50,066 nucleotides of DNA from Escherichia phage EF3-1. The position numbers and the translations under genes were made by a program. The notes under the pieces were generated by a model, which worked only from the letters and a program-made list of their open reading frames with translations, made no database searches and was not told the DNA's origin. Where the stretch lies: the sequence record PQ571291. The stretch is one strand, 5' to 3'. Each line of letters opens with the position of its first letter. The first letter of the stretch is position 1. Positions 13,869 to 14,394 of the stretch are shown here, one piece after another.

Positions 13869-13897
13869 TTGCATGTCCTCGTCGTTAGTGTGATTGC

Positions 13898-13926
13898 ATT
13901 GTATGTCGCATTTACTTTTATTGCAA
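13898..13926 (-). promoter_or_regulatory. sigma70-like promoter for cor operon (TTGCAA-17-TACAAT on minus strand)
   Basis: Minus-strand TTGCAA (13921-13926), 17-bp spacer, TACAAT (13898-13903), about 30 nt upstream of cor ATG. Confidence 0.5.
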
Positions 13927-14030
13927 TAGCGAGATTACAATTTTTTCGTGTAACAGGTGTCTATTTTTGTAACTGTAGATGGTGTTACAAAATCGACCCC
14001 ATCCGACTGCAGGGATATATGATAAAAACT

Positions 14031-14058
14031 CTATATAATATATATAGATAGATAATAT
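14031..14058. repeat. (TA)n-rich block TATATAATATATATAGATAGATAAT, shared with 33413-33460
   Basis: Near-identical TA-rich string occurs in both divergent control regions. Confidence 0.7.
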
Positions 14059-14335
14059 TTAATTTTAGATTTATATATATAATTATTGTTGTGTAACAGT
14101 TGTCTATTGTGTAACAGGTGATTTGATTGATTCGTCAAATTTCTATCATATTTGTTTAAAATCTAATCAATCTTGATTCTATTCATGGGTGTCTGTGTAT
14201 TTCTAAGAAAAAGCTGTTACAAGTGTTACGCAGTAGACACCACATAAAAACAGGACTAAGATATTGATTCCATTGGTGCTGGTTGTAACTTGAGCGATAT
14301 AGACACGCAATTACACACCAATTGCATGTATTCGA

Positions 14336-14363
14336 TTGACTAAACGCTGTTAATGGCTATAAT
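14336..14363 (+). promoter_or_regulatory. sigma70 consensus-like promoter for recombination module (TTGACT-16-TATAAT)
   Basis: TTGACT 14336-14341, 16-bp spacer, TATAAT 14358-14363; ATG at 14395. Confidence 0.6.
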
Positions 14364-14394
14364 GGATTCATCGTAAATGAAGGAGATAAACACA

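Follow-up and report, generated by a model that had tools for sequence, protein, structure and literature searches.

A conserved composite cis-acting region upstream of exoVIII in T1-like phages and its candidacy as a replication origin

Introduction

What is the AT-rich gap in front of the recombination genes of T1-like phages for? T1 is a classical T phage and a notorious laboratory contaminant, and the gap is present in it and in its relatives. We addressed the question in Escherichia phage EF3-1 (PQ571291), whose 50,066-bp sequence, hereafter the window, is a complete, circularly permuted T1-like genome of the genus Tunavirus, family Drexlerviridae. In this genome the gap occupies positions 13875–14394, directly before the gene for exonuclease VIII (exoVIII), the homologue of T1 recE (orf29). 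A first-pass annotation, made from the letters of the window, had noted repeats and a TA-rich block here and had proposed either a replication origin or a multi-operator switch; papers on the T1-like phages TLS (2024) and SU57 (2020) found no origin or iterons. We report that the gap is a conserved composite cis-acting region throughout the T1-like phages (Drexlerviridae), and that it is the best candidate so far for the replication origin of T1 and its relatives. We put the probability that it acts as an origin, with short iterons around an unwinding element and between early promoters, at roughly 45%. Where the gap has to be told apart from a second AT-rich gap at 33.4 kb (R2), it is called R1.

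Results

Conservation of the gap

Conservation was expressed as mean pairwise identity over 15 Tunavirus genomes, the set to which all counts out of 15 refer, and the right end of the gap was fixed by setting the exoVIII start at the ATG at 14395 through homology with T1 orf29, with AAGGAG at 14380. The central core at 14019–14165 was 97.8% identical, and the blocks at 13875–13930 and 14283–14376 were 98.0% and 96.0% identical, to be compared with 97.9%, 99.1% and 79.3% at codon positions 1, 2 and 3 of exoVIII. Between these blocks, the spacers at 13994–14018, 14166–14200 and 14250–14282 showed 81–86% identity, about the third-position rate. The gap is under selection, in blocks, and the constraint on its core matches that on the first two codon positions of exoVIII. 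Poor conservation among relatives, which the first-pass annotation had named as the result that would speak against a function, was not seen, because the conserved blocks far exceed third-position identity.

The sequence of the gap is recognisable within Tunavirus only: by blastn, the stretch at 13600–14700 matched 64 Tunavirus records, T1 included, at 88–94% identity (T1 over the gap: 90.7%), and a search of 72,556 plasmids and 5,426 E. coli genomes gave no further copy of the region. Its G+C content was 0.29–0.34, compared with 0.42–0.50 in the flanks. The features of the gap to which the text refers, from left to right, are the following.

13926–13898, minus strand: predicted leftward sigma70-like promoter TTGCAA-17-TACAAT, a 9/12 match in a promoter scan.
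13948–13964, minus strand: bipartite element TAGACAC-CTG-TTACAC, which is TGTAACAG plus GTGTCTAT, kept in 14/15 genomes.
13965–13992: perfect palindrome TTTTGTAAC-N10-GTTACAAAA, arms kept in 14–15/15 genomes, 10-nt spacer variable.
13994–14018, minus strand: G+C-richer spacer evolving at a near-neutral rate (80.7% pairwise identity versus 79.3% at exoVIII third codon positions).
14019–14088: TA block, candidate DNA-unwinding element, its TA strings invariant in 13–15/15 genomes.
14091–14136, plus strand: five 9-bp phased units, TGTAACAGT, TGTCTATTG, TGTAACAGG, TGATTTGAT and TGATTCGTC, running from 14092, adjoining the TA block and kept in 14–15/15 genomes.
14092–14106, minus strand: second bipartite element, seen in the sequence within the 9-bp unit array.
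14137–14165: rest of the invariant core, AAATTTCTATCATATTTG..., with the sub-motif GAT(T/G)CGNTCAA(A/T)TT, which phages SRT8 and IME347 also have.
14214–14241: inverted TTGTAAC (14216–14222, minus strand) and TAGACA (14234–14239); GTTACAA and TAGACA present in 15/15 genomes, neighbouring bases variable.
14283–14316, plus strand: TTGTAAC (14283–14289) and bipartite element TAGACAC-GCAA-TTACAC (14300–14316), ending 20 nt before the recE -35 and lying inside the regulated T1 reporter fragment (PMC6737242).
14336–14363, plus strand: early promoter P(recE), TTGACT-16-TATAAT, an 11/12 match in the promoter scan.
14370–14380, plus strand: ATCGTAAATGA in the recE leader, candidate operator of the phage regulator Pir; the 11-mer recurs in the pir-helicase gap.
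13948 (+), 13967 (+), 13984 (-), 14091 (+), 14109 (+), 14216 (-) and 14283 (+): copies of KTGTAAC, with the TA block at 14019–14088 between the third and the fourth.

An easily melted centre at a fixed position

The TA-rich block that the first-pass annotation had described is present as TATATAATATATATAGATAGATAAT at 14032–14056. Its recurrence near 33.4 kb, also claimed there, was traced to the first 16 bases, which recur exactly once, on the same strand, at 33417–33432 (0.02 expected), and ATATATAGATAAT follows at 33448–33460 (0.13 expected). Duplex stability was computed for successive 60-mers from nearest-neighbour energies. It was lowest, genome-wide, in those starting at 14027 and 33406, both with z = 5.9, and the next best site reached z = 3.2; the two homologous positions rank least stable in T1, SRT8 and IME347 as well. 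A hairpin or cruciform in the TA block was not indicated, its fold being no better than that of shuffles (z = 0.57), and no acceptable -35 was found in the R1 TA block.

To see how far this arrangement extends, we compared 43 exoVIII loci from viral contigs (42–99% identity). Nearly all of them have a 440–520-bp gap of 30–37% G+C upstream of exoVIII, and in 42 of the 43 (56–99% exoVIII identity) the 60-mer of lowest stability within the 7-kb locus has its start 328–382 bp before exoVIII (z 4.1–5.3), a placement that holds down to 56–66% exoVIII protein identity. The promoter pattern TTGAC(T/A)-N16-TAnnnT was found in 39 of the 43 loci. The shared layout begins with repeats and a G+C-richer spacer; then come the TA block with two direct repeats against it, inverted repeats some 100 bp beyond, additional copies and, last, the promoter. 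This layout persists where the gap sequence itself is no longer recognisable between genera. What differs is the repeat word, which by genus is TGTAAC (T1, IME347), TGTAAT/GATTAC in 8–10 copies (SRT8) or TTGTTC/GAACAA/GAAACA (TLS-like phages). The architecture is also present in the TLS-like phages, in which the upstream gene is a co-oriented tail fibre gene, so the layout is independent of divergent transcription. Judged from these comparisons, a layout that stays constant while the word changes with the lineage is the mark of a sequence-specific DNA-binding protein, encoded by the phage, that would be co-evolving with its sites.

The least conserved segment of the gap, 13994–14018, encodes on the minus strand a hairpin followed by TTTTG in most Tunavirus genomes, with differing sequences; its predicted energy is -7 to -12.5 kcal/mol in most relatives and -5.1 kcal/mol here. 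This hairpin may serve to terminate or insulate transcription that runs leftward from the TA block.

Repeat words around the TA block

The first-pass annotation had listed three direct copies and one inverted copy of TGTAACAG. All four positions were borne out (13949, 14092 and 14110 on the plus strand, 14214 on the minus strand), and these are the sole copies in the window, against 1.22 expected; the conserved unit, however, is the 7-mer KTGTAAC, the eighth base, G, being variable, and the inverted copy reads CGGTTACA in 13/15 relatives. Seven of the 16 window copies of KTGTAAC fall in the gap, within 502 bp, where 0.16 would be expected; the cluster is unique in the genome, each of its sites is retained in 14–15/15 genomes, and the copies closest to the TA block are oriented away from it. 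Repeats of the GTGTCTAT type are likewise present, exactly at 13957 (+) and 14299 (-) and as the near copy TTGTCTAT at 14100. A correction applies to GGTGTCTGT at 14188, which is not conserved among the 15 genomes.

Of the 17 copies in the window of a second word, TGTCTA/TAGACA, 10 lie in the gap or in R2 (33031–33844). This word forms part of a bipartite element, TAGACA-N3-5-TTACA, that occurs five times in the window against 0.08 expected, three times in the gap and twice in R2. T1 carries GTATAT at the 13948–13964 site and at 14102. From the end of the element to the -35 hexamer, the distance is 22 nt at the leftward promoter, 20 nt at P(recE) and 24 nt at TTGACA-17-CACAAT in R2.

Promoters and regulation at the edges

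Both flanking sigma70-like promoters were found where the first-pass annotation had placed them, and all four of their hexamers are invariant in 15/15 genomes. Laganenka et al. (2019) studied the T1 recE promoter, the same locus as the right-hand ~150 bp of the gap: a T1 reporter with at most 150 bp upstream of recE (orf29) was active in E. coli (GFP), and T1 P(recE) was repressed by the phage regulator Pir (Orf23) and by cyclic AMP (cAMP)-CRP, the latter effect also being seen cell-free (PMC6737242). Their fragment corresponds to about 14245–14410 of the window and holds P(recE), one bipartite element and one TTGTAAC, without the TA block; with at most 150 bp upstream of the start codon, that block and the repeats around it lay outside the scope of the study (PMC6737242).

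Pir is a Cro-like protein, encoded here at 19487–20011, 5.5 kb from the gap. An 11-mer, ATCGTAAAYGA, occurs exactly four times, at 14370–14380, 19996–20006, 25412–25422 (-) and 45617–45627, and allowing up to one mismatch raises the count to seven, where 2.4 would be expected. The copy at 19996, in the pir-helicase gap, is ATCGTAAACGA and forms the palindrome TATCGTAAACGATA. It is plausible, from this distribution, that the 11-mer is a Pir operator. Pir as the reader of KTGTAAC is disfavoured, its helix-turn-helix being identical in SRT8 and IME347, whose words differ, and different in T1 and IME347, whose word is the same.

The idea of a control region thus stands for the edges of the gap, since T1 P(recE) is regulated (PMC6737242), bipartite elements sit at promoter-upstream positions of conserved promoters and a candidate Pir operator is shared. 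It is not supported in the form of a lambda-type multi-operator switch: the repeats lie upstream of both -35 hexamers without overlapping them, no repressor gene is adjacent, the Pir helix-turn-helix fails to follow the word from genus to genus, and the sole palindrome (13965–13992) begins about 40 bp upstream of the leftward -35.

A further 21-nt repeat, ATAGCACnnnTTGnTAAAA, has about 24 sites in the window, upstream of many genes and in gene orientation (for example 2991(-), 6919, 22462, 29115(-), 31246(-), 34245, 36040 and 49151(-)), and includes a TTGnTA -35-like hexamer. None of these sites is inside the gap and one is in R2 (33305, minus strand). An unexplained repeat of TLS, reportedly present in T1 too, matches it (PMC11447400).

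Genes on either side

The first-pass annotation had placed the gap between a cor operon and a recombination module. The right side is as described, with exoVIII, Erf and SSB genes; the left side carries a different lipoprotein gene together with one for a DUF6453 protein, and not Cor.

12670–13874: accessory (moron) slot, allelic; PF24052 lipoprotein and DUF6453 protein here, Cor and other genes in T1.
13638–13874, minus strand: left boundary, gene for a 78-aa phage lipoprotein (PF24052, E = 1.9e-25), with a weak Cor match confined to the signal peptide.
14395–15459, plus strand: right boundary, exonuclease VIII (RecE-like) gene, by Pfam and PHROG matches, start by T1 orf29 homology.
15501–16181, downstream of exoVIII: Erf gene, by Pfam and PHROG matches.
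16228–16650, downstream of Erf: SSB gene, by Pfam and PHROG matches.

The label "cor operon" is only loosely apt, because a different lipoprotein sits in the T1 cor slot here. The lipoprotein gene, which the DUF6453 protein gene accompanies on the left side of the gap, is an allelic replacement of T1 cor and has the 5' end alone in common with cor-type relatives; the mosaic breakpoint lies within its signal-peptide coding part, and the adjoining intergenic region stays conserved.

Coding capacity and other signals

In T1 (AY216660), an open reading frame (ORF) of 46 aa, CPTT1_049, is annotated inside the gap at 30110–30250; it has no intact counterpart here and is probably not a real gene. The other ORFs of the gap, 20–35 aa of TA-coded repeats, are implausible, and we rejected the gap as coding. 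A scan of 13700–14500 against Rfam 15 gave a chance snoRNA match only (18.6 bits versus a gathering score of 64, E = 0.8).

Among signals associated with host-type initiation, the DnaA box (TTWTNCACA) is absent from the window, where shuffles led us to expect about 5, and the IHF consensus has one match in the region, within a variable spacer. GC skew tracks gene orientation and is uninformative on the origin. There is no GATC cluster near the gap, which instead lies in 990 bp free of GATC; this tetranucleotide is frequent in the window (248 sites) but missing from 13487–14477 and from 33171–33876, at the two AT-rich gaps.

The second AT-rich gap

R2 is an element of the same kind, with the following features.

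33031–33844: R2, with a TA block at 33406–33465 that holds the shared 16-mer, and promoter-like sites.
33337–33351 (minus strand) and 33588–33602 (plus strand): bipartite elements TAGACA-N4-TTACA, from a motif scan.
33395–33424: TAGACA-18-TATAAT, an 11/12 match reading into the R2 TA block.

It shares the TA 16-mer and the bipartite element with R1, but not KTGTAAC, and R1 lacks the repeats (TGATTGTTGC and TGGAATA) that are conserved to the left of the R2 TA block. Within Tunavirus the right half of R2 is mosaic and carries strain-specific repeats, in T1 for instance three tandem copies of CGATTAACA. The two TA blocks are alike in all four genomes compared (local alignment scores of 25–40 versus 13.7, standard deviation 3.0, for mononucleotide shuffles), a resemblance that is overstated because this control does not keep TA dinucleotide content; concerted evolution of the two blocks within genomes was not seen. 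In T1, TGTATA replaces TGTCTA in R2 and at both R1 sites; ADB-2 carries TGTCTA in R1 and R2 alike. Covariation between the gaps is imperfect, JMPW2 having TGTCTA in R1 and TGTATA in R2, and we take it as only suggestive.

R2 also corresponds to the place where the two ends of the T1 record meet: position 1 of T1 aligns at about 33192 of the window, which places the presumed packaging start about 215 bp to the left of the R2 TA block, and T1 1–2800 is annotated as a repeat region.

Phage proteins that may read the words

The phage encodes replisome components of its own: a DUF3987 helicase (27480–29111), a primase with a T7/P4-type zinc ribbon, and SSB. The DUF3987 family consists of SF6/MCM-like replicative helicases with a C-terminal winged helix (PMC4889955), and one member has been demonstrated to unwind DNA (PMC11724360). 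To look for proteins whose variation follows the repeat word, we contrasted T1 and IME347, which have the same word, with SRT8, whose word differs and whose overall divergence is similar. Over its last ~45 residues, the helicase shares 76% identity with IME347 and 61% with SRT8. In p135 (27068–27475), the small protein after the helicase, FTSALSKEF is identical in T1 and IME347 and becomes FVSLMSKEF in SRT8. The largest contrast, 83% identity to IME347 versus 64% to SRT8, was found in p138 (29125–29541), encoded before the helicase, and is confined to its hypervariable N-terminal half; over 34 contigs the p138 type follows the repeat word only loosely, in a comparison confounded by phylogeny. 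A confident model of p138 (predicted local distance difference test, pLDDT, 91.8) is all-beta, with two small beta-barrels, and its best structural match is Bas11 Gp54, a CapRel trigger.

Discussion

The origin reading of the first-pass annotation fits the centre of the gap best, where an invariant and exceptionally unstable TA block keeps its position across the family, with short genus-specific repeats around it, and it is put forward here as a reading of sequence. If it is right, the central invariant core of about 150 bp would be the phage replication origin, with 60–70 bp of TA block as the unwinding element. The iteron-like 6–7-bp words (KTGTAAC, TGTCTA), which stand in both orientations beside the TA block and further off on both sides, would be read by a phage-encoded, genus-specific DNA-binding function that melts the block and loads the phage replisome, namely the DUF3987 helicase, the primase with the T7/P4-type zinc ribbon, and SSB. 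Candidate readers would be the C-terminal winged helix of the DUF3987 helicase (27480–29111) and the small protein encoded just downstream (27068–27475). Transcription leaving the gap in one or both directions may add negative supercoiling and so aid opening, and the promoter-proximal copies of the words may couple early transcription to the origin complex. P(recE) drives exoVIII-erf-ssb, and the leftward promoter presumably drives the accessory (moron) gene, lipoprotein or cor. That the gap works as an origin, which protein binds it and what supercoiling contributes are all things that we infer.

A wider scheme, which we offer tentatively and with the odds somewhat against it, is that R1 (14.0 kb) and R2 (33.4 kb) are the two T1-like origins, each built on a conserved TA block for unwinding, whose surrounding 6–7-bp iterons diversify by genus (in R2 by strain) and are read by an initiator tied to the DUF3987 helicase operon, the words doubling as upstream elements of early promoters and so coupling early transcription with origin firing.

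The closest parallel is the origin of the staphylococcal pathogenicity islands (SaPIs), in which 6–12 penta- or hexanucleotide iterons, with opposed copies, flank a central AT-rich region, and a self-loading helicase reads them through its winged helix (PMC9371898). The gap resembles it in having short repeats in opposite orientations on both sides of an AT-rich centre (PMC9371898), and both SaPIs and this phage have an AAA+ helicase of a kind described as SF3/MCM-related and as carrying a winged helix at its C-terminus (PMC9371898; PMC4889955). In both, the word differs between related elements and the layout is constant. The gap differs in having fewer repeats, no mirror symmetry and built-in promoters, and in its distance from the helicase gene: the SaPI origin directly follows rep, whereas some 13 kb separate the gap from the gene for the DUF3987 helicase, a candidate for binding the words. 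No sequence similarity of the phage helicase to solved Rep structures was detected, so its relationship to MCM and SaPI Rep rests on the literature. Two marks of origins of the helicase-initiator kind (SaPI, P4 or SV40 type) were found here: repeats of 5–8 bp, in both orientations and on both sides, around an exceptionally easily melted centre.

The satellite phage P4, with ori and crr, and the Bacillus phage SPP1, with oriL and oriR, have two loci per genome that share short repeats beside AT-rich DNA and serve one phage initiator, and the P4 word TGTTCACC resembles TTGTTCAC copies in the gaps of TLS-like phages. Unlike these pairs, R1 and R2 share the TA block and TAGACA/TTACA but not KTGTAAC, and the right half of R2 is mosaic. 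Iterons of lambda and theta plasmids measure 17–22 bp, stand four or more in tandem in or beside the initiator gene and often come with DnaA boxes. The gap is like those origins in that repeats adjoin an AT-rich unwinding element and that nearby transcription could activate it, and unlike them in its cores of 6–7 bp, its 9-bp or 18-bp spacing, and the lack of an adjacent initiator gene and of any DnaA box in the genome. We rejected a classical iteron origin: there are two units spaced by 18 bp and one copy 143 bp away, the flanking genes are tail-fibre, lipoprotein and recombination genes, and DnaA boxes number zero.

Several points weigh against the origin. No mapped replication origin of T1 was found in the literature, and strong early phage promoters often lie in AT-rich DNA. 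The repeats lack mirror symmetry around the TA block, only two or three of them are in tandem, and the exact sequence of the block is conserved beyond what mere easy melting would need. The bipartite element, centred at about -63 to -67 of three sigma70 promoters, looks like a typical factor site, for an activator or a repressor. Some 13 kb separates the helicase gene from the gap, in contrast to the adjacent position found in SaPIs and lambda, and the helicase gave no match to solved structures by single sequence or by profile. As to the other possible readers, the single-sequence model of p135 is too poor to use (pLDDT 41.7), and p138 drops out, its all-beta model showing no sign of DNA binding. 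P(recE), finally, is demonstrably a regulated promoter in T1 (PMC6737242).

The main rival to an origin is that the region serves transcription control only, the repeats being phage or host factor sites that time both early promoters and the TA block an upstream, curved, nucleoid-protein-binding or further-promoter element. It would account for the activity in E. coli of the T1 P(recE) fragment of at most 150 bp and for the repression of that fragment by Pir and by cAMP-CRP (PMC6737242), for the bipartite elements that end 20–24 nt before the -35 of three promoters in R1 and R2, for the 11/12 TAGACA-18-TATAAT directed into the R2 TA block, for the repeat copies that each genus examined has no more than about 60 bp before its conserved recE promoter, and for a candidate Pir box common to the recE leader and the pir promoter region. 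Against it, the most constrained part of the gap lies 220–340 bp from P(recE), beyond the fragment sufficient for regulation in T1. The TA block also keeps its position and flanking repeats in TLS-like phages that lack a divergent gene, and in R1 it has no acceptable -35; KTGTAAC is not a global regulator's word, because it clusters in the gap alone, and the Pir helix-turn-helix does not track the repeat word among SRT8, IME347 and T1. On balance we consider transcription control as the sole role less likely than an origin.

Some other DNA transaction shared with R2, such as packaging or end recognition, an entry site for recombination by exoVIII/Erf, or a platform for a host nucleoid protein, appears improbable. 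It would draw on the likeness of the two TA blocks in four genomes, the recombination genes that adjoin R1, and the ~215 bp between the R2 TA block and the T1-record start of a 2.8-kb terminal repeat. Yet that likeness is overstated by shuffles that ignore TA dinucleotide content, TGATTGTTGC and TGGAATA to the left of the R2 TA block have no counterpart in R1, R1 is about 19 kb from the presumed packaging start, the single IHF match falls in a variable spacer, and genus-specific words point to a phage-encoded reader and not to a host protein. That the conserved core encodes a small RNA or small protein is very improbable, for all the annotated 46-aa ORF in T1 and a minus-strand hairpin and T run at 13994–14018 that in most relatives could end a short leftward transcript crossing the TA block, given that the ORF is not kept here, the other ORFs are 20–35 aa of TA-coded repeats, no Rfam family matched, the fold of the TA block is insignificant, and the hairpin is weak here and belongs to the segment of lowest conservation. 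A small remainder of the probability goes to none of these readings.

The replication origin thus proposed is a precise, family-wide candidate with a built-in test of specificity in its genus words TGTAAC, TGTAAT and TTGTTC. If the gap is an origin, it belongs to the short-iteron origins read by a helicase-initiator; the logic of SaPIs, with short iterons and a self-loading helicase, would then extend to a large family of virulent enterobacterial phages, and a function would be assigned to the C-terminal domain of the widespread DUF3987 helicase. If it is purely regulatory, the region still defines the cis elements of T1 early transcription.

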